A DNA stretch of 64,000 nucleotides, taken from contig CAVXTH010000006.1 in NCBI GenBank assembly GCA_963764625.1, positions 586,029 to 650,028 on the forward strand, in the 5' to 3' direction. Made by a program: the position numbers and the translations under genes. Source of the stretch: Candidatus Krumholzibacteriota bacterium (GTDB taxonomy: Bacteria > Krumholzibacteriota > Krumholzibacteriia > JAJRXK01). Under the pieces are notes generated by a model. The model had not been told where the DNA came from. It was given only the letters and a program-made list of their open reading frames with translations, and did no database searches. Positions 3,866-61,409 of this stretch are shown here, one piece after another (position 1 is the first letter of the stretch; each line of letters begins with the position of its first letter).

Positions 3866-3950
3866 CAGCCACAGCCGGCCCGACGATACTTCCGACCCCG
3901 GTGGATTCCCTTGGAATTTAGGCACTTGCGGCTACGACCTTAGGAAGACG

Positions 3951-5426: not shown

Positions 5427-5453
5427 ACCGGTCACGAGTCTAGATGCGAAGGG

Positions 5454-7425: not shown

Positions 7426-7434
7426 GGTGTTCCG

Positions 7435-7965: not shown

Positions 7966-9029
7966 GATTTGAAGAGATGGCCCACGCCCCGGCTCCCTGG
8001 CAGGTACAGGACGCTCCCGAGCGAGACATCGTGTTGAGCTGCCGCATACGCCTGGCGCGCAACCTGGAGGGGGAGTTTTTCCCCCATCTGTTGGGGGAAG
8101 ACGCGCTACGCAGTCTGAGGACCCGCATCCTCGAGGCGGCCTCGAACTGTCCCTGCGCGCAGGAGCCGGCGTCCTGGGCCATGGAGGAACTCGAGGAACT
8201 CGAGCGGCGTTTCCTCCTCGAACGGCACCTCGTCTCCCAGGAGCTGGTGGCCACGCCACTGGGGCGGGCGGTGGTGGTGAGCGGGGACGAGTCGCGGGGC
8301 CTCATGGTGAACGAGGAGGACCATCTGCGGATCCAGGCCTTCGGCCCCGGACTGAATCCAAAGGAAACCTATGATATTGCAGTACGTTTCGCGTCTGAGC
8401 TCGAGGAACACTTGACCTTTGCCCACAGCCCGCGCTTGGGCTACTTGAGTGCCTGCCCCACGAATTTGGGCACCGGGCTGCGCGCGTCGGTCCTGCTGCA
8501 CCTGCCCGGGCTCTCCCTCACGCAGGACCTGGAGAAGGTGTTGCATAGCCTGAAGGTGCTGAACTATACCGTACGGGGATTCTACGGCGAGGGAAGCGGG
8601 GCTCTGGGAGCGCTCTTCCAGGTGTCCAATTCGGCCACTCTGGGGCTCTCAGGGGCTCAGATCGTGGACGATCTGCTCCACCACCTCCGCAAGGTGATCT
8701 CCGTGGAGCGGGAGGCACGAGCCGTGCTTCTGCGGCGCGAGGGGAAGCGGATCGAGGACCGGGTCTGGCGCGCCTGGGGAATTCTCAACCACGCACGGCT
8801 CCTCAGCACGCGCGAGGCCTTCGATTTGCTTGGTGATGTACGGTTGGGGATGAACTTCCGTTTGCTCCCCGGGGTGGACGAAACGACCCTACGGTGTCTT
8901 CTTGTGACTATTCAGGGGGCGCACCAGGAGATCATGGCGCAGCGTAACTTGAAGGCTCCCCAGCGCGATGAGCGGCGAGCGAAATACGTTCGGCGCACGC
9001 TGGCAAAGGCTAGGAGAGACTCAGAATGA
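7962..9029 (+). CDS. mcsB: protein arginine kinase McsB (phosphagen-kinase family)
   Basis: Phosphagen kinase active-site signature [13 protein letters not shown]; 355 aa; lies between mcsA and clpC. Confidence 0.8.
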
Positions 9030-48011: not shown

Positions 48012-49032
48012 TCCGCGTCACGTACTGATTCTGCGCCGGCGGGCCGTGGGGGATATCATCGTCTCACTTTCCCTGGTGCGCGCTCTTCGCCGCCTTTGGC
48101 CTCAGGCGCGCCTCTCTATGGTGGTGGACCGCATCGCGTCCGAGTTGATCGAGCATTCCGGCGCCGTGGACGAAGTCCTCGTCTATGCACCGCCCTTGGG
48201 AACAGCCGCGCGTCTCGCGCACGACCTGAAGTGGATCGCCAAACTCCGGGCCCAGGACTACGATGTCACGCTCGATCTTCTGGGAACCCCGCAGACGGCT
48301 CAGTGGACGCGGCTCATTGCCTCCCGCGTGCGGGTGGGACGAAGAAGACGGTGGAGGAGTTGGGCCTACAACTACCTGCTCGAGCCATGCCACAGCGGGG
48401 TCCGCTTCGCGGGTGACGAGGTCCTGGATTTCGCGCGGGCTCTGGGGGCTCGGGTGAAGGACTGGGAACCGGCCGCGGTCCTGCCCCCGGACGATGCCGG
48501 GCCGTCGGGAGCTCTCCCGGTCGGAAAGGGCCCTTGGGTGGTGTTGCACGCCCCCGCGAACTGGGAGGCGAAGGCCTGGCCTACGCGGCATTGGGTCGAG
48601 CTGGTGCGAGGGCTCTCCGCCGCCGGGATCGAGCGCATGGAGCTGTCGTGGGGCCCGGGGGAAGAAAAGTGGCGCGATGAGATCATGCGGGAAACCGAAG
48701 GGTTGGTTCAGGCCATGCCACCCACTACTCTGCTGGAACTCGCGCGCCGGCTCTCGCGATGCGATCTACTCGTCTCGATCGATAGCGGTCCGGTTCACCT
48801 GGCGGTAGCGGAAGGAACTCCAACTCTGACCCTCTTCGGCAGCACCGACGAACGAGGATGGCACCATTCCTCATCCATCCATCGTGCGCTCGTGCACGAG
48901 GTGGAATGCCGGCCGTGCGATCTGACGACCTGCCCGGTGCAGGGACATCCCTGCCTCGATTCTCTGCCGCCGGCGCAAGTGTGCACGGCGGCACTCAAAC
49001 TCCTGGCGGAACGGGCGGAGGTTCGGGGATGA
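48004..49032 (+). CDS. glycosyltransferase family 9 heptosyltransferase
   Basis: VLILRRRAVGDIIVSLSLVRALRRLWPQA; C-terminal LVSIDSGPVHLAVAEGTPTLTLFGST. Confidence 0.75.
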   Translation: MADPRHVLILRRRAVGDIIVSLSLVRALRRLWPQARLSMVVDRIASELIEHSGAVDEVLVYAPPLGTAARLAHDLKWIAKLRAQDYDVTLDLLGTPQTAQWTRLIASRVRVGRRRRWRSWAYNYLLEPCHSGVRFAGDEVLDFARALGARVKDWEPAAVLPPDDAGPSGALPVGKGPWVVLHAPANWEAKAWPTRHWVELVRGLSAAGIERMELSWGPGEEKWRDEIMRETEGLVQAMPPTTLLELARRLSRCDLLVSIDSGPVHLAVAEGTPTLTLFGSTDERGWHHSSSIHRALVHEVECRPCDLTTCPVQGHPCLDSLPPAQVCTAALKLLAERAEVRG

Positions 49033-49860
49033 GCTCGATCGGGGCGATCGTGATCACGCGAAACGAGGCACGCAATATCGAGGCGTGCATGCAAGGGCTT
49101 GCCTTTTGTGCGCAACGGGTGATCGTGGATTCGTTCAGTGATGACGAAACGGTGGAGCTCGCCCGCCCCCTCGCTGACAAGATTTATCGACGCACATTCA
49201 CCAGCTGGGGAGAGCAGAAGAACTGGGCGCTCGAGCAACTCGACACCGAGTGGGCGCTCATCGTCGACGCTGACGAGCGCGTGGGAGAAGCGCTGTCCCG
49301 GGAGATCCAGGGGGCCGTAACTTCCGGCGCGAAGGATGCATATTGGATAAGGCGGAAGAATTACTTCTTCGGCCGTTGCATCCGCGGAGCGGGCTGGAAT
49401 CGGGATAGAGTACTGCGGCTCATGCGCTTGCAGGCGGGGCGCTACGACGAACGACGGGTGCACGAGGAAATCCGGCTGCACCCGGGGCGGCGTGCGGGGG
49501 AACTCGAACACCGGCTGGATCATTTCTCCTATGAGGACTGGTCTTCCACTTTCGCCCGGATGTCGGCCTACAGTAGCCGCGGAGCGGCGGACGCACTGGC
49601 GGCGGGACAGCGCGCCACGATCTGGCGCCTGATCTCTCGCGCCCAGTGTGCGGTTCTGGAGGCAGTATCTCCTGCAGGGAGGCTTTCGGGACGGAGTGCA
49701 CGGTCTGGTTCTCTGCGGGCTTGGCGCCTCTCAGCTTTTCTTGAAGCTGGCCAAGATGCGTTTGGGCGAGCTTCCCATGACCGCCGAGGACAATGGCGCG
49801 GGAGAAGTGGAAATCGTGCAAGGTCCCGCCCCGCGAGAGAGCGAGAAGGAGAACGAGTGA
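49029..49860 (+). pseudogene. GT2 LPS-core glycosyltransferase (WaaE/KdtX-like), interrupted by a frameshift near 49640-49660. The N-terminal part lies in the 49029 frame; the C-terminal 70 codons lie in the 49648-49860 frame
   Basis: GT2 N-terminus IVITRNEARNIEACMQGL...VIVDSFSDDET...DADER; the conserved C-terminal amphipathic tail (RFWRQYLLQGGFRDGVHGLVLC...KLAKM) is out of frame. Confidence 0.6.
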
Positions 49861-49871
49861 GGCTCAGGTTC

Positions 49872-50639
49872 ATGGCACGACGCACCTTCGTGGTGGCTCC
49901 CCTTCTCCTTGTGGCACTGAGCTTCGGTGCCCCCGGAAGATCGTACGCCTCGCCCGGTTTCGGAGCGGGAGAGGAAGCTGAGTTCAAGATCAGTTACGGA
50001 GTCATCAGCGCGGGAGAGGGGACTCTCTCCGTCCTGCCGTTTCTGGACTACGACGGATCGCACTGTTATCACTTTCGGTCGCGCGCCCGCAGCAATCGCT
50101 TCTTCAGCGCCATCTTTCGCGTCCGGGACCAGGCCGACTCGTTCATGGATGCCGACTCTCTCGTCACGCGCTACTTCAACAAGCATCTACGCGAGGGCAG
50201 TTTTCGGCGCGACGTGGAGATTCATTTCGATCAGAAGGCGAGGAAGGCGTATTTCCCGGACGGAACGGTCGACGAGATCCGCCCGAATACCCAGGACGTT
50301 CTCTCGGCCTTCTTCAAAGTGCGCGCGATGAAGCTCGAAGTTGGAATGGAGTTCGACGTGCCCACTCACGGCGACAAGGAGATGTATCCGCTGAAAGTGA
50401 AAGTGCTTCGCCGCGAATCAGTGGAGAACGAAGCTCTGGGGGCTGTGGATTGCATCGTGGTGCAACCGTTCCTGGATGACGACGGCCTCTTCAAACACGA
50501 GGGTGATCTCTTGTTGTGGATGAGCGATGATGAGAGGCACATTCCAGTGAAGATGCGGGCCAACGTTCCGGTGGGAGCGATCGAAGCGGACCTGATTCGG
50601 TACACGCCTCCGGACGCCCCGCCGTCGAGTGGGAACTAA
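49872..50639 (+). CDS. DUF3108-like secreted protein
   Basis: Signal peptide MARRTFVVAPLLLVALSFGAPGRSYA; 255 aa; ATG in frame inside the long 48858-50639 ORF, downstream of the GT2 stop. Confidence 0.55.
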   Translation: MARRTFVVAPLLLVALSFGAPGRSYASPGFGAGEEAEFKISYGVISAGEGTLSVLPFLDYDGSHCYHFRSRARSNRFFSAIFRVRDQADSFMDADSLVTRYFNKHLREGSFRRDVEIHFDQKARKAYFPDGTVDEIRPNTQDVLSAFFKVRAMKLEVGMEFDVPTHGDKEMYPLKVKVLRRESVENEALGAVDCIVVQPFLDDDGLFKHEGDLLLWMSDDERHIPVKMRANVPVGAIEADLIRYTPPDAPPSSGN

Positions 50640-51924
50640 CGTGCGCGAGCGATCCTGTGAGGTCCTCATTTTCGGTGGTGGGTGCGCGGGCCTCTGGATT
50701 CTGGAGAGGCTCGTGCAAGCGGGGTACGATGCCCTTTTGCTCGAGTCAACCGCTCTGGGCGCGGGGCAGAGTATCCAGGCGCAGGGCATCATTCACGGCG
50801 GGGGCAAGTACGCCCTACGCGGGGTGCATGACTTCGAAGCGGTCAAGGCGATCCGCGAGATGCCGGAATGCTGGCGACGTCATTTGCGCGGCGAGGAAGA
50901 ACCCGATCTCTCGGCCGCCCGCGTTCTCTCCGAATCCTGTCTCCTCTGGGTCCCCAGGGCCGGCTGGTGGTCGCGTTTGAGCGCCTACGCGTTCCTCCCG
51001 GTGGTCAAGAAGGCGGGCCTTCTCCATGCCGGCCCCATGAAGCTGGAGAGTAAAGAATGGCCACAGGCACTCCGCGGGTCGGCTCGGGTGGTCTATTCGA
51101 TGGCGGAACCGGTGCTTGCCACCGGTTCGCTCCTGGCCGCCCTGGCGGCCCGCCATCCCCAGCGATTGCTCCGCTATGCGCCGGGGGCGGAGCTCAGACA
51201 CTTGAGAATTGATCTGAAGGCAAATTGCCAACACATTATCACAATTGAAGATCCAGAGATAGAGGAACCCCTGCGGCTGCGGACGCGCGCCGTCGTCTAC
51301 GCGGCGGGTGCTGGCAATGAGGCCCTCGTGAGACGATCGGCGGCGGGGGACGTACCCATGCAGAGACGCCCGCTGCGTATGATGATGCTGCGCGGGCCGC
51401 TTCCCACGCTGTACGGACACATGATTTCAGGGGGCAAGACGGCGATGACCGTGACCACCCATCCACTGGCGAAGGTGGACCGGCCAGGTGAGAGCGCAGA
51501 GCAGGTCTGGCAGGTGGGGGGGGAACTGGCGGAGCGGTTCGCCGAGCGGGGCGAGAGCGAGGAGCTGAGGGTCGAGTTCCGGCGTCACCTGTCCCGGTTC
51601 TTGCCAGGGTTGGACTTCTCGCGGGTGTCCATGGCGAGCTATTCCGCAGTCCGAGCGGAATCGAGGTCCCGCGATTTGCGGCGACCCAGCGGGGTTCAGG
51701 TGAAGAGGCTGGGGCCGCGCGCGCTGGTGACCTGGCCTACCAAGATGGCTCTGGCTCCGGTCCTCGCGCGCGAAGTCACCGCTGAAGTGAACCGGGACCT
51801 CGGCCCGCCGGCGCGGGAAGAACACGCAGCGCCGCAGCGGGGCCCGGAGGTCCCGTGGCCTCGACCCGAACTGGCCAAGTATCCCTGGGAAGAGGGAGAG
51901 CTGACGTGGCGCCCCGTGCTCTAG
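50629..51924 (+). CDS. FAD/NAD(P)-binding oxidoreductase
   Basis: N-terminal Rossmann dinucleotide motif EVLIFGGGCAGLWILERL; 431 aa. Confidence 0.55.
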   Translation: MGTNVRERSCEVLIFGGGCAGLWILERLVQAGYDALLLESTALGAGQSIQAQGIIHGGGKYALRGVHDFEAVKAIREMPECWRRHLRGEEEPDLSAARVLSESCLLWVPRAGWWSRLSAYAFLPVVKKAGLLHAGPMKLESKEWPQALRGSARVVYSMAEPVLATGSLLAALAARHPQRLLRYAPGAELRHLRIDLKANCQHIITIEDPEIEEPLRLRTRAVVYAAGAGNEALVRRSAAGDVPMQRRPLRMMMLRGPLPTLYGHMISGGKTAMTVTTHPLAKVDRPGESAEQVWQVGGELAERFAERGESEELRVEFRRHLSRFLPGLDFSRVSMASYSAVRAESRSRDLRRPSGVQVKRLGPRALVTWPTKMALAPVLAREVTAEVNRDLGPPAREEHAAPQRGPEVPWPRPELAKYPWEEGELTWRPVL

Positions 51925-51935
51925 GAAGCACCGGA

Positions 51936-52697
51936 ATGAGTGTCGGCAGAGTGGGCCTGGGCACGGTCAAACTCGGTCGCAACTCCGGGGTGAAGTACCC
52001 CGAGGCCTTCGAGCTTCCGAGCGAGACTGAGGTGCGAGAATTCCTCGAGACATCGTGGGGGCTGGGGGTCCGTCTCTACGACACCGCCCCCGCCTACGGA
52101 AGCAGCGAAGAGCGCCTGGCGCCCTTCGTGGCGCGACACCGGAAGGAGATGATTCTCTGCACGAAGTGCGGAGAGGAGTTCGGGGCAGGCGGCTCGCGCT
52201 ACGACTACTCAGGTCATTTCTTGCGCGCTTCGGTGGAAGCGAGTCTTCGCCGGCTGGGCACCGAGTATCTCGATATTCTCCTCATTCACTCCAACGGGGA
52301 TGATCGGCACATCCTGAACGAAACGGACGCAGTCGAGACGCTGTCGCAGTTGAAACGAGAGGGGAAGACCCGCGCCATCGGGATCTCGGCGAAGACTCCC
52401 GAGGGGATTCGCGGAGCCGCGGGTTCTCTAGATGTAGTCATGGCGCCCTATAGTCTCGCAAGGCCGCACTTGGCCGAGCCGCTGGAAGAAGTCCATGCCC
52501 AGGGCGTGGGCGTTCTTTCGATCAAGGGACTGCAGAGCGGTCATCTCGCCGTCGAGAGTGCGGATTTGGCGGAAGAAGCTCTGCGACACGTCTTTTCGCG
52601 GAGCTTTCTCGATGTGCTGATCCTCGGTACAATCAAGAGTGATCACCTGGCGCAGGCGGTGACGCTGGCCCGCGCTCTCGACGATTCCGGTCGGTGA
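51936..52697 (+). CDS. aldo/keto reductase
   Basis: AKR motifs (LYDTAPAYGSSEERL; ILLIHSNGDD); AGGAAG RBS. Confidence 0.7.
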   Translation: MSVGRVGLGTVKLGRNSGVKYPEAFELPSETEVREFLETSWGLGVRLYDTAPAYGSSEERLAPFVARHRKEMILCTKCGEEFGAGGSRYDYSGHFLRASVEASLRRLGTEYLDILLIHSNGDDRHILNETDAVETLSQLKREGKTRAIGISAKTPEGIRGAAGSLDVVMAPYSLARPHLAEPLEEVHAQGVGVLSIKGLQSGHLAVESADLAEEALRHVFSRSFLDVLILGTIKSDHLAQAVTLARALDDSGR

Positions 52698-52698
52698 G

Positions 52699-54255
52699 AT
52701 GAACCACGAGATGAACCTCTTTCCCAATGCCCCAGCTCGCCCGAGCCTGAGCGAGGAGCGCCTTGCCATGGCCCTCTTCCTCATCTTTCTGTTGGGCCTG
52801 CTGCTGAGGCTCTTTGGACTCTCGCATCAAAGCCTCTGGATCGACGAGATGATCACGCTGCGCCAGGGCCTGATTCCGGGGCACGGACTCTGGGAACAGT
52901 TCCTGGATGACTATCACAATCCCCTTCCCATGCTGGTCATCACCCAGCTCGCCCACCTGAGCCACTCGGAAACGGTGCTGCGTTTTCCCGGCGCGGTATT
53001 GGGAGCCTTGAGCGTGCCGCTGATCTTCTTGCTCGGACGGCGTCTCGCGGGCGCGCGAACCGGGCTCTTCGCCGCACTCCTCTTGGCGGTGAGTCCGTTC
53101 CATCTCTTCCACTCGCAGGAGCTTCGCGGGTATGCGTGGATGATCTTCTTCGGACTGGCCACCACCCTGGTTGCGGTGAACGTTCGGAGGCGTTTGAGCT
53201 GGCCGCGCGCGCTTCTTCTCGCGCTCCTGGGCATCGCCACCACTCTGTGCAATCTCGAGGGTCTGTTCTGGATGGGCAGTCTGGCGTTGGCCTGTCTTGC
53301 CGCCGGCCTGGTGAAACGCCGCGATCTGAAGACCTGGGGGGTGGCCTTCGGACTCATCGTCTTGGTCACTGCACCGTGGTGGACCGGAACCCTGCACACG
53401 CATCACGAGGAGAGACTTCTGCCGGGGGAACAGACGGGAGTTCCCATGCGCGGGAGCACCACTCTGGGGAAATGGGCGATTCCCTACACCGGCTTCGTAC
53501 TCGCGATGGGAAATACCTTGGGCCCGACACCGCTCGAGCTTCACGCCGAGAGCGAGAGCACGATCGAAGGAAAGCTCGGTCTCGCGCGGAGGCATTGGCC
53601 CGCGGTGGCGGGTGTGGCCGGACTCGTTCTCGTGCTCGGTCTCAGCGGGATTCTCGCTCTGCGTTCGCGCGCCGGCCTTCTTCTGTTGTGGGTGATCGTG
53701 CCGGTCACAATCGCAATTTGGCTGGCGGCGAGAAACGTGAAGCCTCTGAACCCTCGCTACTGCATCGCTGCGCTGCCGGCCCTCATGCTGCTGTTCGCGG
53801 CGGGTCTGGATGCCCTGCCGAGAAAGACCGCCCTCATGGTGCTCATTGCGTGGCTCGCATTCTGCGGGGTGGCAGACTACCGCTACCACTTCATGCCCGA
53901 ATACCAGCGGGAAGACGTACGGGGAGCCGTGCGATTGGTGGAAGAACGTGAAGGGCCCGACGACTTCATCATCGCCCCGACTGTTTTCGGGGTGTTTCAG
54001 TGGTATTATCGAGGGAGGAATCCAGTCGAATCCTACTGGTGGTCCAAAGTGGATACCTCTCTCGCCGATGTTACGCGCCGCCTGGATCTCCTGGATCCCG
54101 GACGCAAGTTCGCCTGGTACGTTCGCTGCCGCCCCTGGCACGATGACCCCAACGGTTGGCTGCTCGGGGCGTTCGAGGAAAACTGGCGCTACCGCGCCCT
54201 GTTTCAATTGCCCGGGGTCGAGGTCTATCTCTTCGAGCGCAGAGGAGCGCACTGA
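52699..54255 (+). CDS. GT-C family glycosyltransferase (ArnT/PMT_2-like; polyprenyl-phospho-sugar dependent)
   Basis: 518 aa; about 11 predicted TM helices; N-terminal PMT_2/ArnT-like region (SLWIDEMITLRQG...FHLFHSQELRGYAWMIFF). Confidence 0.65.
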   Translation: MNHEMNLFPNAPARPSLSEERLAMALFLIFLLGLLLRLFGLSHQSLWIDEMITLRQGLIPGHGLWEQFLDDYHNPLPMLVITQLAHLSHSETVLRFPGAVLGALSVPLIFLLGRRLAGARTGLFAALLLAVSPFHLFHSQELRGYAWMIFFGLATTLVAVNVRRRLSWPRALLLALLGIATTLCNLEGLFWMGSLALACLAAGLVKRRDLKTWGVAFGLIVLVTAPWWTGTLHTHHEERLLPGEQTGVPMRGSTTLGKWAIPYTGFVLAMGNTLGPTPLELHAESESTIEGKLGLARRHWPAVAGVAGLVLVLGLSGILALRSRAGLLLLWVIVPVTIAIWLAARNVKPLNPRYCIAALPALMLLFAAGLDALPRKTALMVLIAWLAFCGVADYRYHFMPEYQREDVRGAVRLVEEREGPDDFIIAPTVFGVFQWYYRGRNPVESYWWSKVDTSLADVTRRLDLLDPGRKFAWYVRCRPWHDDPNGWLLGAFEENWRYRALFQLPGVEVYLFERRGAH

Positions 54256-54899
54256 TGGTGGCCCGCGCTCTCGGCGCCGAGTTGGCCAAGACGCACTGGT
54301 TCTATGAACCGGTCAAACGGCTCTTCGACCTCGTTGCCGCCACCCTGGGCCTGATCTTTTTCCTGCCCCAAGTTCCTTTCCTCGCTCTACTGGTGAAACT
54401 GGAATCACCGGGTCCCTTTCTGTTCCGGCAGGAGCGGGTGGGCAAGGGCGGCCGGCATTTCTTCTGCTTCAAGATCCGTTCGATGGTGGTCAACGCCGAG
54501 GCGCTCAAGCAGAGTTTGTCGCATCTCAACGAGGCCGACGGGGCCGCATTCAAGATCCGTCAAGATCCGCGCATCACTCGCGTGGGACAGTTCGTACGGC
54601 GTTCGTCGCTCGACGAATTCCCCCAGCTTCTCAATGTCCTGCGCGGGGAGATGTCCATCGTGGGCCCGCGCCCTCAGGTTCCCGAGGAAGTGGCCCAGTA
54701 CCGCCCGGAGCATCGAGCGCGTCTGGAAGTAAAACCGGGCCTCACCTGTCTCTGGCAGGTCAGCGGACGCAACGATCTCGATTTTGAGGAGTGGATGCGC
54801 ATGGACCGCGAATACGTGCGGAGGCGGGGACTGAAACTGGATCTGTGGATCCTCCTGCACACCCTTCCCGCCGTGATCGCGCGCAAGGGCGCGTATTGA
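54255..54899 (+). CDS. polyprenyl-phosphate sugar-1-phosphate transferase (small PglC/WbaP-C-like bacterial sugar transferase)
   Basis: PF02397 signature (LDEFPQLLNVLRGEMSIVGPRP ... PGLTCLWQVSGRN); single N-terminal TM. Confidence 0.8.
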   Translation: MVARALGAELAKTHWFYEPVKRLFDLVAATLGLIFFLPQVPFLALLVKLESPGPFLFRQERVGKGGRHFFCFKIRSMVVNAEALKQSLSHLNEADGAAFKIRQDPRITRVGQFVRRSSLDEFPQLLNVLRGEMSIVGPRPQVPEEVAQYRPEHRARLEVKPGLTCLWQVSGRNDLDFEEWMRMDREYVRRRGLKLDLWILLHTLPAVIARKGAY

Positions 54900-54947
54900 G
54901 ATGGTTCGAGGGCAAGTTCTGAACTCACCACCAAGGCCGTCTCCCTC

Positions 54948-55865
54948 ATGAGCGATGCCACTTTCGCTTCCGGACGTCTCTCGACCTGGCTGCGCTTCAC
55001 GCGGCCCTTCACCCTTTGGCCCCCGGGCCTGGGAATGATCAGCGGTGGATTGACCGCCATGGGCGCCTATCCGCGCGAGAGCTTCAGCGGGGACATTCTG
55101 GTCAAGCTCGTCCTGGGCGCCGTGATGGCCGCGGTCCTCAACGCGGCCAGCAACGGGATCAATCAGATCTACGACCTCAAAGTCGACCGGGTGAACAAGC
55201 CGGAGAGAGCGCTGGTGACCGGAGCGATGAGCGTAGGGGAGGCCAAGATCCTCTCGGCCGTTCTGTACCTCGTGGCAATGATCCTGGCGGCGCTGATCAA
55301 CATCGAGTGCTTGCTCTTGGCCGCGGTCGCGGCGGTGTTGACCTGGGTGTATTCCGCGCCTCCCTTGCGCAGCAAGCGACACGGCTGGTGGGCCAACCTG
55401 ACCATCGCGGTTCCCCGTGGGCTCTTGCTCAAGGTGTGCGGTTGGGCCTCGGTGAAAACCTTCATGGCCTTCGAACCGTGGTACATAGGGTCTATCTTCT
55501 TTCTCTTTCTGCTGGGAGCCTCCAGTACAAAGGATTTCGCGGATATGGAAGGAGATCGCCTGGGCGGGTGCGAAACGCTTCCTCTTCGCTACGGAGTTCA
55601 TCGCGCGGCCTGGATGATCGCACCTTCCTTCGTGCTTCCGTTCATCATGCTCCCGCTGGGCACCGAGCTTGGAATTCTTACCGGCAATCCCCTTCTGCTG
55701 AATCTGTTGGGACTGGGTCTGGCGGCCTGGGGCTGTTATACGGTGTATCTTCTAGTACGGCGTCCCGATGAGCTCGCGACCACCGAGAATCATCCTTCCT
55801 GGACCCACATGTACCTCATGATGATGGCGCTGCAGGTGGGCTTCGCCATCTCGTACCTGTTCTGA
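54948..55865 (+). CDS. UbiA-family prenyltransferase / polyprenyl-phosphate phosphoribosyltransferase-like
   Basis: Asp-rich motifs NQIYDLKVDRVNKPERAL and KDFADMEGD; about 8 TM; 305 aa. Confidence 0.7.
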   Translation: MSDATFASGRLSTWLRFTRPFTLWPPGLGMISGGLTAMGAYPRESFSGDILVKLVLGAVMAAVLNAASNGINQIYDLKVDRVNKPERALVTGAMSVGEAKILSAVLYLVAMILAALINIECLLLAAVAAVLTWVYSAPPLRSKRHGWWANLTIAVPRGLLLKVCGWASVKTFMAFEPWYIGSIFFLFLLGASSTKDFADMEGDRLGGCETLPLRYGVHRAAWMIAPSFVLPFIMLPLGTELGILTGNPLLLNLLGLGLAAWGCYTVYLLVRRPDELATTENHPSWTHMYLMMMALQVGFAISYLF

Positions 55866-55879
55866 ACGAGGGGAGAGTC

Positions 55880-56263
55880 GTGATCGTCGGCCTGGGAATC
55901 GACCTCTGCGAAGTGAGACGCCTGCGCGATCTGGAAGAACGCTATGGCGAGCGATTCCTGCGCCGCATCTTCACGGACAAAGAGCGGGACCGCTGCGCGG
56001 GACGGCGCCACCACGAATGCCTCGCCGGACGGTTCGCGGCCAAAGAAGCGGCGCTGAAGGCCCTGGGCACCGGACTCTCGCAGGGCATCGCCTGGCGTGA
56101 CGTCGAGTTGACGCGGGGGGAATACCAAGCTCCCACCATCCTCTTTCATCGGCGGGCCCGCGAGATCTTCGAGCGTCTGGGGGGGAAGCGGGTGCAGGTT
56201 TCGATCACGCACGACGGAGGCAACGCGGCCGCAGTCGTGATTCTCGAAGGAGAGAGCTCATGA
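55880..56263 (+). CDS. acpS: holo-[acyl-carrier-protein] synthase
   Basis: IVGLGIDLCEVRRL...FAAKEAALKALG ACPS motifs; 127 aa. Confidence 0.85.
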   Translation: MIVGLGIDLCEVRRLRDLEERYGERFLRRIFTDKERDRCAGRRHHECLAGRFAAKEAALKALGTGLSQGIAWRDVELTRGEYQAPTILFHRRAREIFERLGGKRVQVSITHDGGNAAAVVILEGESS

Positions 56264-56931
56264 ATCGAGACTCTCTGGCTCTCCTGGTCTCGGGGGCCTG
56301 GCTGCTGGTGGTCCTGGTCATCGCCGAGCTCGCGCGGCGGAGAGGCATGGCGCGGGTGGACACGCGGCGCCTGGTTCACGTGGCCATCGCGAGCTGGATC
56401 GTTCCCACCTTCTTGCTCTACGAGAGCTGGCCGTGGGCCGCTGCGCCGGCCTTCGCCTTCGTGATCGTCAACGCCCTGAGTCTCCGCTTCGATCTCATCA
56501 AGAGCGTGGAAATCCGCGAGCGGAGCCTGGGGACGGTATTCTTTCCCCTCAGCGTGGGCATCCTGACCATCTTGGGCTGGCACGATCCCTGGCGGCCAGT
56601 GGCCGCGGCCGGAGTGTTGAGCATGGGGTGGGGAGACGCTTCGGCCTCGTTCGTGGGCCGCCGTTGGGGTCGTCGTCTCTACCATGTCGCCGGTCACCAA
56701 AGGAGCGTGGAGGGTTCTCTGACCATGCTCGTGATCAGTTGGCTGGCTGTGCTCGTGGCGGGCGCTCTCTTGGGGAGGGGAGTCGATCCCGGTTGGGCCG
56801 AGGCGGGCCTGCTCGCGGCCCTGGTGGCCACCGTGCTCGAAGGAATCTCGTTGTTCGGCGCGGACAATCTTCTGGTGCCCCTGTCCACCTCCGCCATGCT
56901 GGCCCTCATGCACGGGAGGCTGTGGGTGTGA
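56260..56931 (+). CDS. CTP-dependent polyprenol kinase-like membrane protein (dolichol kinase / phytol kinase VTE5 / CdsA superfamily)
   Basis: 6-7 TM; C-terminal GWGDASASFVGRRWG matches the GDxxAxxxGxxxG motif of the CTP-dependent kinase family. Confidence 0.55.
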   Translation: MNRDSLALLVSGAWLLVVLVIAELARRRGMARVDTRRLVHVAIASWIVPTFLLYESWPWAAAPAFAFVIVNALSLRFDLIKSVEIRERSLGTVFFPLSVGILTILGWHDPWRPVAAAGVLSMGWGDASASFVGRRWGRRLYHVAGHQRSVEGSLTMLVISWLAVLVAGALLGRGVDPGWAEAGLLAALVATVLEGISLFGADNLLVPLSTSAMLALMHGRLWV

Positions 56932-57977
56932 TGGAGACCTCGAATTTCGCTCCGGTGGACCGGGTGTTTCTCACCGGGGGCACGGGCTATTTGGGCAAGC
57001 ACTTGGTGCGCGAGTTTCTCGAAGCCGGCTACGAACTGCTGTTACTCACGCGCGAGAATTCCGATCGCAGCGGCCTGCCGCTAAAGGGTGTCCGCTACGT
57101 GGAAGGTGACTTGCTCGATCCTGCTAGCTACGCGCACGTGCTGGGCGAAGTGGGAGCGGTGGTGCATTCGGCCGGCCTGGTCAGCCGCTGGGAGAAGGAC
57201 AAAGACCGTTTCGATCGGGTGAATGTCGAAGGCCTCGACGGATTGCTACGCGCCTGTACCCAGGCCCAGGTGGCGCGCGTGGTGTACACCTCTTCGTTCT
57301 TCGTGCTGGGTCCGGGAGAGGACGCCGCGCCGCGCGACGAGACGCAGCGCATGCCGGTCGCTGGCTTCAACGATTACGACCGAACCAAGATTCTGGCGGA
57401 AAAATGCGTGGGCGCGCACCGACGCCAAGGACTCGACGTCATCAGTGTGCTGCCCACCGTGATCTACGGTCCCGGTGCGAGAACCCAGGGGAACCACGTG
57501 GCGGAGATTCTGGAAGATCTGCTTGCGGGAAAGCTCCCGGGCGTGATCGGAAGTGGTGCGCAGGTCTGGAACTACGTCTTCGTGCGCGACGCCGCGCGCG
57601 GACATCGGCTGGCTCTGGAGAAGGGGGAAGCCTGCGGCGACTATCTTCTGGGAGGAGAGAACGCGAGCATGCTGGAGTTTCTGGACCTCGCAGCCGAGAT
57701 CGGTGAAGTCTCTGCCCCCAAGAGAAAGGTCCCCTTCAGGGTTCTGATGGCGGTGGCGCGTCTGCAGATGTTGAGAGCTCGTCTCACCGGCAAGGCTCCC
57801 GAACTCACCAGTGGCATGGTGCGAAGTTATCAGTACGATTGGGCGTTCAATGACGCGAAGGCGCGCCGCGAGCTGGGCTACGAGGGTAGAGACCTCCACG
57901 ATGGTCTCAGTGAGACCATCGGATGGTTGCGCGCGGGCGGAGTCTCTCCGTTTCGCGAACGGTGGGAATTCCAGTGA
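56931..57977 (+). CDS. NAD-dependent epimerase/dehydratase family SDR
   Basis: N-terminal Rossmann motif VFLTGGTGYLGKHL; 348 aa. Confidence 0.75.
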   Translation: METSNFAPVDRVFLTGGTGYLGKHLVREFLEAGYELLLLTRENSDRSGLPLKGVRYVEGDLLDPASYAHVLGEVGAVVHSAGLVSRWEKDKDRFDRVNVEGLDGLLRACTQAQVARVVYTSSFFVLGPGEDAAPRDETQRMPVAGFNDYDRTKILAEKCVGAHRRQGLDVISVLPTVIYGPGARTQGNHVAEILEDLLAGKLPGVIGSGAQVWNYVFVRDAARGHRLALEKGEACGDYLLGGENASMLEFLDLAAEIGEVSAPKRKVPFRVLMAVARLQMLRARLTGKAPELTSGMVRSYQYDWAFNDAKARRELGYEGRDLHDGLSETIGWLRAGGVSPFRERWEFQ

Positions 57978-58720
57978 ATGCCCTCCCCGCCTTCAGCTAT
58001 GGCTTCGATTGGCACGCGCTCGCTCTCCCTCTGCTGGGGAACCTGCTGCTGGCGGTCGTGGCCTGGCGCCGATCGCTGGTCAGCCGCAGTGGCTTTTGGG
58101 GCGGAGCGCTGTTGGGAAGCTGGATCCTGATCCTGGGCGGCGGGGGAGCCTACCTGCTCCTGTGCGCATTCTTTGTCCTGGGGACCTCCGCGACTCGGCT
58201 GGGCTATCGGCGGAAGGCGGAGCGAGGACTGGCCCAGGAGGAGCAGGGACGCCGGGGGGCCCGTCACGTGCTCGCGAATTGCGGCGTCGGGTTGCTTCTG
58301 GTCACGCTCTATCCCCGTCATTTCTCGTTCGCCCTCGGCGCGGCGTATGTTGCCTCCTTCGCCACCGCGACCGCGGACACCCTGGGCAGCGAGGTCGGTC
58401 AGTTGTGGGGCCGGCGGACCTTCGACCTCTTGCGCTTCCGCCCAGTCCCGCGCGGCAGCGAGGGCGGAGTCTCGCTGGAGGGAACCCTCGCGGGGGCGCT
58501 GGGGGCCGTGATTCTGGCGCTGCTGGGCTCCTTTCTGCGATTCTATCCACTTTCGCTGTGCTGGATTCCCGCCCTGGCCGGGGTTCTCGGAAGCGCCCTG
58601 GAGAGCCTCCTGGGGAGTTCAGCGAGGCTGCGCGCGGGACTGGACAACGAGCTGCTGAACTTTCTGAACACGGTGTTTGGCGCCATTCTGGCCTGGACCG
58701 CGCTCCAGATGCTGTATTGA
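57974..58720 (+). CDS. DUF92 / COG1836 integral membrane protein (VTE6 phytyl-phosphate-kinase family)
   Basis: Multi-TM; conserved ATATADTLGSEVGQ segment typical of DUF92; GTG start overlapping the upstream stop. Confidence 0.55.
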   Translation: MNALPAFSYGFDWHALALPLLGNLLLAVVAWRRSLVSRSGFWGGALLGSWILILGGGGAYLLLCAFFVLGTSATRLGYRRKAERGLAQEEQGRRGARHVLANCGVGLLLVTLYPRHFSFALGAAYVASFATATADTLGSEVGQLWGRRTFDLLRFRPVPRGSEGGVSLEGTLAGALGAVILALLGSFLRFYPLSLCWIPALAGVLGSALESLLGSSARLRAGLDNELLNFLNTVFGAILAWTALQMLY

Positions 58721-59117
58721 GGCATCCCGGCCGGCGGTTTGCTTGAGTTTTCCCCAAGGGAATGCTAGACTTGAACTTCGATCAAAGAGGGATCCGCGGC
58801 CGGTCCTACGCCAGACCCGCGTCGACTTCCGATCTCTCACATAGGAACGCAACTTTGCTTCCGCACCAAAGGAGTGCCCGTAGAGCTTGGTTAACGCGGT
58901 TCCCTCGTCGTGGGGAACGTTGACATCCGGGGGGGACGTAGCTAGCTACCGAAGGCAGGAATCCGTGAGGAGAATCTGCGCGGTCTGGTAGAACCCTTGG
59001 TGAGAGCTCCAGGTGCACGGTCTCAACGATCGTAAACCCGCTGTCATCTCGCTGAACTTTTGCCTCTTCAAGGCGAACCCTCGTGCCATGGTTGGGGCGG
59101 GGGAGGAGTGTAGTGTC

Positions 59118-59933
59118 ATGTCCCTCGAGGTTTACTCCGCGAAACGCTCGCTTCTCAGGCTCTGGCCGGTACTCTTGCTATTCGGTTTGGGCGCCTGCGG
59201 TTCGAGTGCCTACACCGACGTCGATCTCCAGAAGGATCTCGACGTTCCCAGTGCGAGTCATCTGAGTCCGGAGGCTCAGACCTTCGCGGCCGCGCCGGAT
59301 ACCATGCAAGTGCCGCCGGTCTACCGCATCGGCAGCGGCGATGTGCTCGAAGTGGTCTTCTTCACCCATCCGGACCAGAACCGCTTCGTGACGGTACGGC
59401 CGGACGGGCGGATCACGCTGCCCTACGTGGGCGATTTGATGGCGCGGGGGAAGGAGCCCACGAAGCTTGCGAGCGAGATCCAGAACGACTACTCGAGAGT
59501 GCTGGTCGATCCCAAAGTCGATATCCTGGTGAACAAGATCGGCGGGAAGTACTACGTGCTGGGGGAAGTGAAGAACGCGAACGAGTTCAGTTACGAGCGG
59601 CCTCTCACTCTTCTACAGGCTATTGCCGGTGCTGGTGGGTACAGTAACGACGCACGGCTCTCCAATTTCGTTCTGATTCGGGTCGACGGGAAAGGCGGAC
59701 GTTTCGCTGCTGTCTTCAACATGCGCGAGTACATGAGCCAACGAAAAAAACGAGGGGACATCTACATCCAGCCGGATGACATCGTCTGGGTGCCCAAGGA
59801 CAACATCAGCCGCTGGGACAATGCAGCCCGAAAGTTGTTTGGCACCGTCGTGCACGCAGAGGATATGGTCTACAAGGGGCTGCAGATAGTCAAATTCGAC
59901 GAGGTCTACCCGGGCAGATATTACGCTCCTTGA
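59118..59933 (+). CDS. polysaccharide export outer-membrane lipoprotein (Wza/Poly_export family)
   Basis: Lipobox LFGLGACGSS; Poly_export motif YRIGSGDVLEVVFF; SLBB-like region; GGAGGAG RBS. Confidence 0.8.
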   Translation: MSLEVYSAKRSLLRLWPVLLLFGLGACGSSAYTDVDLQKDLDVPSASHLSPEAQTFAAAPDTMQVPPVYRIGSGDVLEVVFFTHPDQNRFVTVRPDGRITLPYVGDLMARGKEPTKLASEIQNDYSRVLVDPKVDILVNKIGGKYYVLGEVKNANEFSYERPLTLLQAIAGAGGYSNDARLSNFVLIRVDGKGGRFAAVFNMREYMSQRKKRGDIYIQPDDIVWVPKDNISRWDNAARKLFGTVVHAEDMVYKGLQIVKFDEVYPGRYYAP

Positions 59934-59963: not shown

Positions 59964-61409
59964 ATGTCAGGACTCTACAGCCAAGGACCGGTACAGGGGG
60001 AGCGCGATACCACGATGCGCGACCTTCTGTCGGTCGTGTTCAAGCGCAAGTGGCTCATCATCATCTTTTTCCTGGGAACCTCGGTCCTGGTGGCCCTGAA
60101 GGTGGTCACCACTCCGGAGACCTGGTCGGCCGACGCCACCCTCATGTTACAGCGGCAGGGACGAACTAGTGTGATGGAGAACAGTTCCAGGGCCTTGCCT
60201 TGGGTGGAGGTGATGGAGTCGGAGGTCGAAATCGCCCGCAGTGTCCCGGTGCTGCAATTGGCGCGCGCCAAACTCAAGGAACCCACGAAGGACTTTCCCG
60301 AGGGTATCGATCTGAGCATGGGCGCTCTGGGCGCACAAATCAAATCGGGAGGCGTCGGAGAGTCAAACGTGGTGTACATCACAAGCATCGGCGATCAGCC
60401 CAAGAGAGCCATCCGCATAGCCAACAAGGTTGCTGAAGCCTATGTCGAATACCATAAGAAGATGTTCGCGCTTCCCGATGCGGCAAGCGCAGTCAAGGCG
60501 CAGACGGATTCGACTCTCAAGGCTCTATCGGACTTGCAGAATGAGCGGCAGCGAATCTTGAATGAGGCGGGGTTCACCGATCTCAAAGCCGAAGAGACGA
60601 ATCTCCACTCGTTGCGGCGCGAACAGCGCAGCAACCTCAGTCAGGCGGAACTGGAGATAAGTACTCTTCGTGAACAGGTAGCGGCCATACCAAAGGATGT
60701 TAATGGAATTGGCAGCGATCTTCCTTTCAATATACCGAGAGGATACGCGCAGCAGGAACTCATGATGAATGCGGTAGAAAGATACCGTAGGAGTCAACAT
60801 GATCTTGAGGAACTGAAATCTCAGTATACGGAAGAGCATCCCAAGGTCAAATCCGCGGAACTCGAACTCCAAGAGCGTCGCAAGGCTCTGGAGAGTTCTA
60901 TCCAGCAATTAGTTTCGCTCAAGACTGAGGAACTCAAGATCGCGGAGGCCAAGCGCGATGGAATTATGCACCAGATTCAGAAGATCGACGCGCAGCTGGC
61001 CAGGATGCCCGATTTTAATCGCAAGGTGAGCTTCCTCGATACCCAAATCGACAGCGCCGAGAAGCAGTACGCCAAGCTGAACTCGAAGTACGTGGACACC
61101 CAGCTGAGCCAGGTGAGCTACCAGGACTACGGCGTTTCGCTGCTCTCTCCGGCGGTGTCCGCCTACAAGAACACCCGCGGCGATCTGGTCCGCATGGCCC
61201 TGGCGCCCCTCCTGAGTCTGTTGGCCGGCATCGGTCTGGCCTTCTATCTGGAAAATCTGGATCACTCGATGAAGACGCGCGAGGACGTGGAGCATCATCT
61301 CGAGATTCCCGTCCTGGCCAGTTTCCCCGACGTGGACGAGGGGGAATCGGATCTCGAGCCCCGGACGAGGCGAACCCCCTTCTGGAAAGGCCGCCGGGGC
61401 GGCCGCTGA
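59964..61409 (+). CDS. polysaccharide chain-length determinant (Wzz/PCP periplasmic domain; lacks a kinase domain)
   Basis: Wzz N-terminus (LRDLLSVVFKRKWLIIIFFLGT); long coiled-coil periplasmic region; second TM near the C-terminus; 481 aa. Confidence 0.75.
   Translation: MSGLYSQGPVQGERDTTMRDLLSVVFKRKWLIIIFFLGTSVLVALKVVTTPETWSADATLMLQRQGRTSVMENSSRALPWVEVMESEVEIARSVPVLQLARAKLKEPTKDFPEGIDLSMGALGAQIKSGGVGESNVVYITSIGDQPKRAIRIANKVAEAYVEYHKKMFALPDAASAVKAQTDSTLKALSDLQNERQRILNEAGFTDLKAEETNLHSLRREQRSNLSQAELEISTLREQVAAIPKDVNGIGSDLPFNIPRGYAQQELMMNAVERYRRSQHDLEELKSQYTEEHPKVKSAELELQERRKALESSIQQLVSLKTEELKIAEAKRDGIMHQIQKIDAQLARMPDFNRKVSFLDTQIDSAEKQYAKLNSKYVDTQLSQVSYQDYGVSLLSPAVSAYKNTRGDLVRMALAPLLSLLAGIGLAFYLENLDHSMKTREDVEHHLEIPVLASFPDVDEGESDLEPRTRRTPFWKGRRGGR

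Follow-up and report, generated by a model that had tools for sequence, protein, structure and literature searches.

Four genes in this Krumholzibacteriota operon, encoding a UbiA-superfamily prenyltransferase, a VTE5/dolichol-kinase-like protein (VTE5L), an extended SDR and a DUF92 membrane protein, are the only functional unit within it and probably build an isoprenoid membrane lipid. In the reading that we favour, at a probability of about 0.45, CTP-dependent double phosphorylation of a free prenol would be followed by O-prenylation of a membrane acceptor by UbiA. The families of these proteins, their catalytic motifs, their co-localisation across phyla and the fusion of the two kinase-like proteins are observed; from these we infer the substrates, step order, chain length, acceptor and role of the SDR as follows. 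With CTP as donor, the VTE5-like enzyme would place a first phosphate on a free isoprenoid alcohol within the membrane; DUF92 would add the second, as VTE6 does on phytyl phosphate, and the resulting prenyl diphosphate would be allylic and, most likely, about C20 in length. A UbiA enzyme resembling archaeal DGGGP synthase (DGGGPS) and chlorophyll synthase (ChlG) would then ionise this diphosphate at its Mg-binding Asp motifs and prenylate an oxygen nucleophile, either a hydroxyl or a carboxylate, on an acceptor bound to the membrane. The HpnA-like SDR may make the alcohol (prenal to prenol), or may reduce or oxidise the acceptor or product, which would be an envelope lipid of the isoprenoid ether or ester type. 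Several points count against this reading: salvage seems redundant where prenyl diphosphates arise de novo, hosts that are not phototrophs offer no evident source of free prenol, and, as set out below, some UbiA orthologues lack kinase neighbours, a Gln replaces one Asp of the first UbiA motif, and kinases and cytidylyltransferases look alike in sequence and fold.

Table 1. Genes of the distal operon in the window (the whole 64,000-nucleotide stretch analysed), with profile matches
Feature	Coordinates	Strand	Profile or motif
FAD oxidoreductase, DAO family, upstream of GT-C; lineage-specific context	50629-51924	+	PF01266, 52.7 bits
AKR (aldo-keto reductase), directly upstream of GT-C, coupled	about 51935-52697	+	PF00248, 108.5 bits
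GT-C fold glycosyltransferase, ArnT/PMT-like, 518 aa	52699-54255	+	PMT_2 (PF13231), 34.5 bits (cutoff 26.1)
PGT, small monotopic phosphoglycosyl transferase, PglC/WbaP C-terminal type, 214 aa	54255-54899	+	Bac_transf (PF02397), 215.7 bits; TIGR03025, 281 bits (under cutoff 295.55)
UbiA-superfamily prenyltransferase, 305 aa; hub gene of conserved module	54948-55865	+	PF01040, 137.6 bits
AcpS, holo-ACP synthase	55880-56263	+	ACPS, 68.4 bits; TIGR00516, 99.4 bits (cutoff 59.8)
VTE5/dolichol-kinase-like (VTE5L), putative CTP-dependent isoprenoid alcohol kinase, 223 aa; core module	56260-56931	+	CTP motif
Extended SDR, HpnA-like/3-beta-HSD-like NAD(P) oxidoreductase, 348 aa; core module	56931-57977	+	Epimerase (PF01370), 135.8 bits; TIGR03466 HpnA, 210.6 bits (under cutoff 367.65)
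DUF92/TIGR00297 (VTE6-type) membrane protein, putative prenyl-phosphate kinase; core module	57974-58720	+	PF01940, 170.2 bits
Wza, downstream of DUF92	59013-59933		
Wzz, downstream of Wza	59964-61409		

The seven open reading frames from GT-C to DUF92, which the first-pass annotation had described as coupled genes that read like a self-contained pathway, were all found on the plus strand with junctions that amount to translational coupling. GT-C/PGT and VTE5L/SDR each overlap as TGATG and AcpS/VTE5L as ATGA, and DUF92 starts at a GTG (57974) that shares the sequence GTGA with the SDR stop codon; this start gives 248 aa, the same length as the orthologues, with an upstream ATG at 57923 as an alternative. 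Spacings are 1 nt from AKR to GT-C, 48 nt from PGT to UbiA and 14 nt from UbiA to AcpS. The set is not self-contained: the seven genes are the tail of a longer co-directional string that begins at least at an MsbA-like ABC gene (43418), continues through three heptosyltransferases, a GT2 gene, DUF3108, the FAD oxidoreductase and AKR, and then runs in order through GT-C, PGT, UbiA, AcpS, VTE5L, SDR and DUF92 to Wza/Wzz. They form the distal part of one long envelope (LPS/exopolysaccharide) operon. Apart from UbiA, discussed below, the proteins fall into the families originally named. The solved structure closest to the SDR is 3wj7, a 'putative oxidoreductase' (9e-41), and a sequence search among solved structures gave no homologue for GT-C.

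Comparison across 84 related loci separates the core from its surroundings. UbiA, VTE5L, SDR and DUF92 are the only genes that travel together, in Krumholzibacteriota, Acidobacteriota and one Planctomycetota-labelled MAG, and they do so in four different orders: UbiA-(AcpS)-VTE5L-SDR-DUF92 in Krumholzibacteria, SDR-VTE5L::DUF92-UbiA or a convergent UbiA / DUF92::VTE5L-SDR in Acidobacteriota, and VTE5L-SDR-DUF92-UbiA at locus L083. Counting only loci with flanks of 4 kb or more on each side, 6/6 in Krumholzibacteria and 27/31 in Acidobacteriota have DUF92 no further than 6 kb from UbiA; the SDR adjoins its three partners in both groups as well as at L083 and L057. The kinases are not obligatory neighbours of UbiA, since none of nine Eisenbacteria-like and neither of two Wallbacteria loci carries them near the UbiA orthologue, whose partner there is a membrane protein of 250 aa or a variant radical SAM enzyme.

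Conservation of the neighbourhood extends across phyla for the four core genes and stops at Krumholzibacteria for GT-C, PGT and AcpS. These three, together with the FAD oxidoreductase and AKR, are conserved only inside Krumholzibacteria and absent at every other locus among the 84; GT-C and PGT are found at no Acidobacteriota, Eisenbacteria-like, Wallbacteria or Planctomycetota-labelled locus. Both adjoin UbiA only where the entire gene order is inherited, and the earlier proposal that they consume a polyprenyl-phospho-sugar within one shared pathway is not supported. In this lineage the modification of glycan or LPS falls to GT-C, PGT, the FAD oxidoreductase and AKR, and PGT probably starts the glycan exported by Wza/Wzz. 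AcpS, suspected from the start of being incidental, is indeed a housekeeping passenger (TIGR00516) inside the module, lying between UbiA and VTE5L only in Krumholzibacteria (L001-L004, L006, L008 and L082). An unrelated gene lodged mid-module, and an order in Krumholzibacteria that is simply inherited, could suggest that the four core genes are themselves no more than co-transcribed housekeeping membrane enzymes with unrelated roles. We regard this as highly improbable: distant phyla keep the four families side by side although order and orientation take four different forms, and 38 loci have two of them fused, and this combination of fusion and rearranged synteny strongly disfavours it.

Both CTP-type enzymes are indeed present, with a functional link between them, in line with the first-pass annotation, which had named a CTP-dependent kinase-like protein and a VTE6-family DUF92 protein. 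VTE5L carries the dolichol/phytol-kinase CTP motif on a CdsA/CarS-like fold; the motif is of the kinase type and the CdsA signature is absent, and neither sequence nor fold distinguishes kinase from cytidylyltransferase activity. DUF92 shares 38-42% identity with cyanobacterial proteins of the TIGR00297/VTE6 type. At all 38 Acidobacteriota loci carrying VTE5L, DUF92 and UbiA, the two kinase-like domains occupy a single open reading frame; public gene calls (411-434 aa) agree, and the VTE5L profile matches the N-terminus of one such product, P0201, at 95.9% probability. The CTP motif, the VTE6-type identity and this fusion make phosphorylation of a free isoprenoid alcohol, once or twice as first suggested, a reasonable reading of how UbiA may be fed.

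Phytol salvage in plants and cyanobacteria is a close precedent. VTE5 phytol kinase acts first and VTE6 phytyl-phosphate kinase (DUF92/COG1836) second, the same order as the domains of the fusion from N to C, and they feed the UbiA-family enzymes VTE2/HPT, ChlG and MenA. The scheme proposed here would likewise use the same two membrane enzyme families serially with CTP and a UbiA-superfamily transferase that consumes an allylic C20 diphosphate. The hosts here, however, are not phototrophic and show no bch or chl genes close by, and the transferase falls under the NCBIfam cutoffs for HPT, ChlG and MenA. The module also differs in its constant HpnA-like SDR, in the kinase fusion of Acidobacteriota and in its placement within LPS/EPS operons. 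It was the clustering of COG1836 with isoprenoid genes in prokaryotes that first pointed to VTE6 (PMC9782597, PMC3223725).

UbiA, about 60% identical across phyla, is a distinct subfamily nearest, in both sequence and predicted fold, to archaeal DGGGP synthase and chlorophyll synthase. Both Asp-rich motifs originally reported are present (N72-Q-x-x-D76-x-x-x-D80 and D196-x-x-D199-x-x-x-D203), and the first Asp of the canonical NDxxDxxxD is replaced by an invariant Gln. DGGGPS, the closest solved structure and sequence, shares its catalytic residues. This raises the possibility of an archaeal-type ether lipid, in which UbiA would prenylate a prenyl- or acyl-glycerol phosphate, one CTP enzyme would act as a CarS/CdsA-like cytidylyltransferase to give a CDP-lipid, and the SDR would supply the glycerol phosphate backbone or reduce a dihydroxyacetone-phosphate intermediate. 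Archaeal diether synthesis proceeds through GGGPS, DGGGPS and CarS and has a counterpart in FCB-group bacteria, whose DGGGPS homologues yield a lipid of the archaeol type in E. coli (Villanueva et al. 2020, PMC7852524). Both Krumholzibacteriota and Eisenbacteria are related to the FCB group, and VTE5L has its structural relatives in CarS and CdsA. We nevertheless consider this scheme unlikely. All DGGGPS NCBIfam models score far under cutoff (97.8 vs 296 and 80 vs 353), the motif 2 region YSAPPLRSK...GWWAN looks closer to ChlG than to DGGGPS, and no GGGPS/PcrB-like open reading frame was found in the window or at 83 loci (L001-L083), a weak test given an approximate query. Moreover, the motif of VTE5L is that of a kinase rather than a cytidylyltransferase, plant VTE6 is a kinase, and an SDR stands in place of G1P dehydrogenase.

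The first-pass annotation instead likened UbiA to decaprenyl-phosphate phosphoribosyltransferase, and this comparison fails: the UbiA profile gave no similarity to Rv3806c (8j8j) at E<=10. Nor is there support for the pathway built upon it, in which the kinase(s) would make a polyprenyl phosphate, UbiA would add a phospho-pentose from PRPP, the SDR, FAD oxidoreductase and AKR would epimerise the lipid-linked sugar, and GT-C would transfer it to lipid A/core or protein in the periplasm. The enzymatic logic does parallel mycobacterial DPA synthesis and the three-component pentofuranose systems of PPPRS, MATE flippase and GT-C GT136 (Kelly et al. 2024, PMC11127046), and this genome places a UbiA-fold enzyme in one envelope-glycan locus with GT-C, an FAD oxidoreductase and reductases, these last three translationally coupled; the module also occupies LPS-related operons in two phyla. 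Yet UbiA lies outside the PPPRS/DPPRS family, the Asp beside the catalytic Asn that PPPRS requires (D248 of ORF15) is the invariant Gln here (NQxxD for NDxxD), and phosphoribose phosphatase, MATE/GtrA flippase and DprE1-family oxidase are absent, the FAD protein belonging to DAO. GT-C, DAO and AKR are kept with UbiA only within one phylum, and a second kinase that makes a diphosphate has no role, so that we find this route quite improbable. The claim of novelty also divides: the proposed pathway corresponds to the systems already described (PMC11127046), whereas for the four-gene core we found no description in the literature. In common with ArnT/PMT/Gtr periplasmic glycosylation from polyprenyl-phospho-sugar donors, GT-C matches PMT_2 and sits in an LPS-core locus, but the analysis recognised neither a flippase nor a polyprenyl-phosphate glycosyltransferase of the ArnC/GtrB type here.

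A glycan-carrier role has some room, given that the operons holding the module are LPS-related in two phyla, both here (msbA/GT9) and in Acidobacteriota (lptD-rmlD). VTE5L could act as an undecaprenol/polyprenol kinase that refills polyprenyl phosphate for PGT, GT-C and O-antigen/EPS synthesis, with DUF92, UbiA and the SDR processing the same polyprenol, for example in carrier remodelling or recycling. Its dolichol-kinase-type motif and the recurrence of envelope-glycan genes around the module, PGT and Wza here and a GT4 (MraY/WecA-type) gene at L083 included, fit this picture. We doubt it strongly: it leaves no role for a prenyl-diphosphate-using UbiA conserved across phyla, the fusion of VTE5L with a second kinase of VTE6 type argues for a diphosphate product rather than a monophosphate carrier, and bacteria normally obtain undecaprenyl phosphate by dephosphorylating the diphosphate. 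In support of the favoured reading, L083 also carries an FPP/GGPP-type synthase in the same gene string as the module. In the window, the GT2 gene upstream is frameshifted and its PF00535 match is weak (25.2 bits).

Comparison across lineages reduces the seven genes, which the first-pass annotation had read as a self-contained glycan-carrier pathway, to a smaller conserved core of four, encoding the UbiA-family transferase, a VTE5-like protein (VTE5L), an SDR and a DUF92 protein. We examined 84 loci (80 around UbiA orthologues in GTDB species genomes, three from protein look-ups and the window) and mapped the window proteins onto them by tblastn and iterated HMM searches. The complete synteny from GT9 to ExeA is confined to Krumholzibacteria, and is uninformative because gene order there is merely inherited. 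Outside this group, none of the 84 loci has the GT-C, PGT, AcpS, DAO or AKR gene adjoining UbiA, whereas SDR, VTE5L and DUF92 do adjoin it. Synteny therefore rules out GT-C, PGT and AcpS as members of the module: a pathway that includes GT-C and PGT is not supported, AcpS is incidental, as had been allowed for, and the neighbourhood expected to be conserved is so only for the core. When only loci with 4 kb or more on each flank are counted, DUF92 lies within 6 kb of UbiA in 6/6 from Krumholzibacteria, 27 of 31 from Acidobacteriota and one of two from Planctomycetota-labelled MAGs, and in none of the nine Eisenbacteria-like and two Wallbacteria loci.

Gene order within the core (U, UbiA; V, VTE5L; S, SDR; D, DUF92) runs U-(AcpS)-V-S-D in Krumholzibacteria, either S-V::D-U or convergent U / D::V-S in Acidobacteriota, and V-S-D-U in L083, one of the loci collected. 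In all 38 Acidobacteriota loci with VTE5L, DUF92 and UbiA (38/38), VTE5L and DUF92 are contiguous in one reading frame. Public gene calls made independently, 411-434 aa long, back this fusion, and the N-terminal 188 residues of one public record, P0201, align to the VTE5L profile with an hhalign probability of 95.9%. The two proteins are thus coupled in both settings, by a shared operon in the window and by fusion in Acidobacteriota. Adjacency that persists despite rearrangement, together with the domain fusion, gives strong evidence that the four proteins act in one process; that they form no functional unit is scarcely credible, as both the fusion and the rearranged synteny contradict it.

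All seven ORFs claimed for the window are present on the + strand (see table). Profile searches uphold their family names, namely PMT_2 (GT-C), Bac_transf (PGT), UbiA, ACPS, extended SDR (Epimerase, HpnA-like) and DUF92, with VTE5L the sole weak assignment among the seven. GT-C scores 34.5 bits against PF13231 (PMT_2/ArnT-like; gathering score 26.1), with no solved relative matched in a PDB sequence search, and PGT scores 215.7 bits against PF02397 (PglC/WbaP catalytic domain, monotopic phosphoglycosyl transferase; 27). Window GC is 60-65%, GC3 is 0.74-0.83 across all seven genes, and their junctions are tightly coupled. The cluster is not self-contained, as the same co-directional gene string runs on upstream and downstream. 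A terminator and promoter scan of 58500-59200 found no signal above chance and gives no 3' operon boundary. For DUF92, the GTG start is more likely than the ATG of the public call, because it creates the GTGA overlap with the SDR stop and agrees with the 248-aa length of the orthologue at locus L082. Separately, the upstream GT2 seems frameshifted: its L082 orthologue aligns to frame 3 (49044-49577) with residues 7-184 and to frame 1 (49639-49839) with residues 205-274. Because the alignment splits over two frames, the 593-aa ORF joining GT2 and DUF3108 is a read-through artefact, a pseudogene or an assembly error.

Features of the window (window positions) and of related loci (positions within each locus)
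Feature	Position	Junction or remark
MsbA-like ABC transporter	43418-45361	upstream, same co-directional string
Three family-9 heptosyltransferases, GT2, DUF3108		upstream of the flagged genes, co-directional string
GT2, apparently frameshifted	49029-49860	inside ORF 48858-50639
DAO-family FAD oxidoreductase, aldo-keto reductase (AKR)		upstream, co-directional string
GT-C	52699-54255	1-nt gap from AKR stop to start
PGT	54255-54899	overlap TGATG with GT-C
UbiA	54948-55865	48 nt after PGT
AcpS	55880-56263	14 nt after UbiA; purine-rich stretch upstream
VTE5L (223 aa)	56260-56931	overlap ATGA with AcpS
SDR	56931-57977	overlap TGATG with VTE5L
DUF92, likelier start	GTG 57974	overlap GTGA with SDR, provided this start
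DUF92, public gene call P0142 (265 aa)	ATG 57923	55-nt overlap with SDR (57923-57977)
Wza, Wzz, ExeA/SPOR ATPase		downstream of DUF92, past a 292-nt gap
Partial AAA_31/BcsQ-like ATPase		downstream, same string; below Pfam threshold
L066, lptD, rmlD, SDR, VTE5L::DUF92, ubiA	1193-9032	overlapping string with the module as its tail
L023, fused VTE5L::DUF92	6599-7957	
L031, radical SAM	8920-10116	
L032, radical SAM		
L033, radical SAM	1918-3162	4-nt overlap with UbiA
L042, radical SAM		
L007, radical SAM		
L083, radical SAM	9712-10896	
L082, Phosphodiest	11708-13501	
L083, Phosphodiest	1-2002, 3392-5302	

Orthologues of the window UbiA in Candidatus Krumholzibacteriota MAGs are 89% and 71-77% identical to it, which places the window in that lineage, and the subfamily is very conserved between phyla (~60% identity). 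Its top NCBIfam ranks are PRK12884, ChlG, BchG, DGGGPS and homogentisate phytyltransferase (E 1e-35 to 1e-27), all well under the cutoffs: it scores 97.8 vs 296 (PRK12882), 80.1 vs 353 (PRK12883) and 121.4 vs 269 (PRK12884) for the DGGGP synthase equivalogs, and 115.1 vs 313 (PRK07566) and 99.5 vs 212.3 (TIGR01476) for chlorophyll/bacteriochlorophyll synthases. We rejected its identification as a bona fide ChlG, BchG, HPT, MenA, UbiA, CyoE, MqnP or EboC, for which all scores are far under the NCBIfam cutoffs. In PDB searches with phmmer, DGGGPS (6m31) matches at 3.6e-22 and chlorophyll synthase at 8e-17, improving to 4.5e-29 and 2e-22 with a 17-orthologue profile. The likeness to decaprenyl-phosphate phosphoribosyltransferase (DPPRS) proposed earlier did not materialize, as Rv3806c is unmatched by this profile even at E<=10. 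A comparison with individual proteins gave values of 28.1 (26%) for DGGGPS (6m31), 24.9 (21%) for ApUbiA, 24.2 (23%) for AfUbiA, 21.0 (13%) for UBIAD1 and 19.7 (13%) for DPPRS (8j8j).

The residues important in MjDGGGPS are N62, D66, D70, Y125, K130 and the motif-3 aspartates (PMC9385802); every one is kept in the window UbiA, as the invariant N72, D76, D80, Y135, K143 and D196, D199 and D203, respectively. The first motif reads N72-Q73-x-x-D76-x-x-x-D80, with Gln in place of the Asp after Asn, and Q73 is invariant in 17 sequences. In polyprenyl-phosphate phosphoribosyltransferase (PPPRS), the first Asp of N-D-x-x-D-x-x-x-D is required (ORF15 D248; PMC11127046), whereas UbiA has Q73 at this position. 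Motif 2, YSAPPLRSK..GWWAN (YSAPPL.xK..GW..N), is closer to ChlG. UbiA therefore represents a distinct subfamily inside the clade of C20-diphosphate-using O-prenyltransferases. A DPA-like pentose route of UbiA followed by an epimerase, as suggested in the first-pass annotation, is very unlikely; of the systems already described, mycobacterial DPA synthesis and the three-component systems of PPPRS, MATE and GT-C (PMC11127046) come closest to it. Family, motif, partner genes and conservation all argue against it: among the genes at 43418-63807 we recognized no phosphoribose phosphatase, flippase or DprE1/DprE2-type epimerase, and the FAD protein belongs to the DAO family.

VTE5L scores 18.5 bits against Pfam CTP_transf_1 (cutoff 24) and has no NCBIfam match; its L083 orthologue, at 25.3 bits, is above threshold. 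The GDxxAxxxGxxxG motif noted originally is indeed present (D126-A-S-A-S-F-V-G133-R-R-W-G137 ... R-S-V-E151-G-S) and is followed by RSxEGS and DNxxVP. Across 15 aligned homologues all these motifs are invariant, including D126, G133, G137, E151, G152 and S153. We take DxxAxxxGxxxG followed by K/R-S/T-x-E-G to be the CTP-binding motif of dolichol kinase. VTE5L also has a polytopic, CdsA/CarS-like fold, and JGI pipelines label its homologues phytol or dolichol kinase. DUF92 scores 170.2 bits against PF01940 (gathering score 27.5) and 159.4 bits against TIGR00297, under the cutoff of 205.85. Sequence searches of the PDB with VTE5L and DUF92 gave no matches. An iterated VTE5L profile picks up DUF92 domains at 54-99 bits, and the two are distant paralogues in one CTP-enzyme superfamily. 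In public records the fused proteins (~415-435 aa; in L013-L080, and P0201 and P0209) are named only 'TIGR00297 family protein'.

An archaeal-type ether-lipid branch, in which one CTP enzyme would be CarS-like, draws on DGGGPS being the top match of UbiA and on precedent in the FCB group (PMC7852524), but is improbable given the missed DGGGPS cutoffs, the kinase-type motif of the CTP enzyme and the lack of a GGGPS nearby. On this last point, phmmer found no GGGPS/PcrB match in the window and 83 related loci (L001-L083), a weak test because of the PcrB query used. The SDR scores 135.8 bits against the extended-SDR family PF01370 and 210.6 bits against TIGR03466 (HpnA), under the cutoff of 367.65; among solved structures it comes nearest to an uncharacterised oxidoreductase (3wj7, 9e-41), followed by sterol C4 decarboxylase-type and sugar-nucleotide enzymes. 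Because it also matches NAD_binding_4 and thioester-reductase models, we entertained an alkyl (non-isoprenoid) ether route, with the SDR as an acyl reductase feeding the kinases and UbiA, and ruled it out on chemistry, since UbiA-type transfer requires an allylic diphosphate (PMC9385802).

The best-supported reading, to which we assign a probability of roughly 0.45, transfers the VTE5-VTE6 logic of plants and cyanobacteria to the module. VTE5 is a CTP-dependent phytol kinase and VTE6, a DUF92 protein, is a phytyl-phosphate kinase; in series they yield phytyl diphosphate for UbiA-family transferases. By analogy, the module would convert a prenol to prenyl phosphate, prenyl diphosphate and finally an O-prenylated lipid, with the SDR making the alcohol from an aldehyde or modifying the acceptor or product. 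The data show family membership, motifs, conservation and the fusion, from which the substrates, chain length, acceptor and role of the SDR are inferred. Three observations fit the proposed sequence: the N-to-C order of the fusion is the order of the two reactions, DUF92 shares 38-42% identity with cyanobacterial TIGR00297 proteins, and the transferase belongs to the C20-diphosphate clade. It was the clustering of COG1836 genes in prokaryotes that first pointed to VTE6 (PMC9782597, PMC3223725). Carrier-lipid maintenance by a polyprenol kinase would agree with the envelope-glycan context, but it leaves the transferase and second kinase without explanation and strikes us as quite implausible.

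In Acidobacteriota the module sits after lptD and rmlD in an overlapping, operon-like string, as observed in L066. Together with the msbA and triple-GT9 string of the window, this ties the module to LPS-assembly genes in two phyla. A further reading, possible if rather doubtful, is an undescribed, widespread bacterial pathway whose product would be an isoprenoid membrane lipid with an O-linked prenyl group, perhaps a prenyl glycerol ether of archaeal-like type or a prenyl ester, and so a new class of isoprenoid lipid in bacterial envelopes. Its hosts would be Acidobacteriota, Krumholzibacteriota, Eisenbacteria-like lineages, Wallbacteria and others; a fused CTP-dependent prenol/prenyl-phosphate kinase would supply the DGGGPS/ChlG-like transferase, its genes would be co-transcribed with those for LPS assembly at the outer membrane (msbA plus heptosyltransferases in the window; lptD-rmlD in Acidobacteriota), and in some lineages an uncharacterised membrane protein of 250 aa would join it, along with a variant radical SAM enzyme.

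The self-contained seven-gene glycan-carrier pathway of the first-pass annotation is thus only partly supported. Both the families taken singly and the VTE5-VTE6 logic are known already; what makes the locus interesting is the smaller conserved core with its presumed lipid product. In literature on COG1836/DUF92/VTE6, TMEM19, prenyl-phosphate kinases, Acidobacteriota DGGGPS and Krumholzibacteria ether lipids, we found no description of the bacterial four-gene set, the kinase fusion, the SDR partner, the DGGGPS/ChlG-like transferase subfamily or the LPS-operon context. If the proposal is true, abundant non-phototrophic soil and sediment phyla hold a complete route from prenol to prenyl diphosphate, tied to a dedicated O-prenyltransferase, which would imply that bacterial envelopes contain an isoprenoid lipid not recognised so far. 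It would also bear on the role of bacterial DGGGPS-like enzymes in the 'lipid divide' debate, and on that of DUF92/TMEM19 proteins outside plastids. The natural kinase-kinase fusion would be a handy single protein on which to test prenol salvage biochemistry. The analysis also disposes of a tempting annotation that lacks support, that of a DPA-like pentose pathway equipped with a GT-C of its own.

Further genes accompany the module elsewhere. In L083 its upstream side holds a pair of membrane-anchored Phosphodiest proteins plus an FPP/GGPP-type synthase, and its downstream side a 250-aa polytopic protein that belongs to no family, together with a 'variant radical SAM' (NF045502); none of these four types occurs in the 64-kb window. 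Membrane-anchored Phosphodiest proteins (alkaline-phosphatase superfamily) flank the module in L082, a Krumholzibacteria relative, as well. The 250-aa polytopic protein, conserved at 242-272 aa with no Pfam or NCBIfam family, lies directly 3' of UbiA in 13 mostly Eisenbacteria-like loci (L009-L012, L014, L015, L035, L036, L051, L057, L081, L083 and L007), and is found also in lineages without nearby kinase genes. L033 (JAJFLN010000584.1), labelled Candidatus Cloacimonadota, has a UbiA orthologue 55% identical to that of the window, then a radical SAM gene, with no adjoining GGGPS. GGGPS and DGGGPS are reported as co-localised in Cloacimonetes (PMC7852524), and given this contrast L033 may represent another UbiA subfamily or a binning issue. 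The NF045502 radical SAM gene (232.8 bits, MSMEG_0568-related) is coupled to the UbiA 3' end in six loci, including Wallbacteria, a hint that the prenylated product may be modified further.
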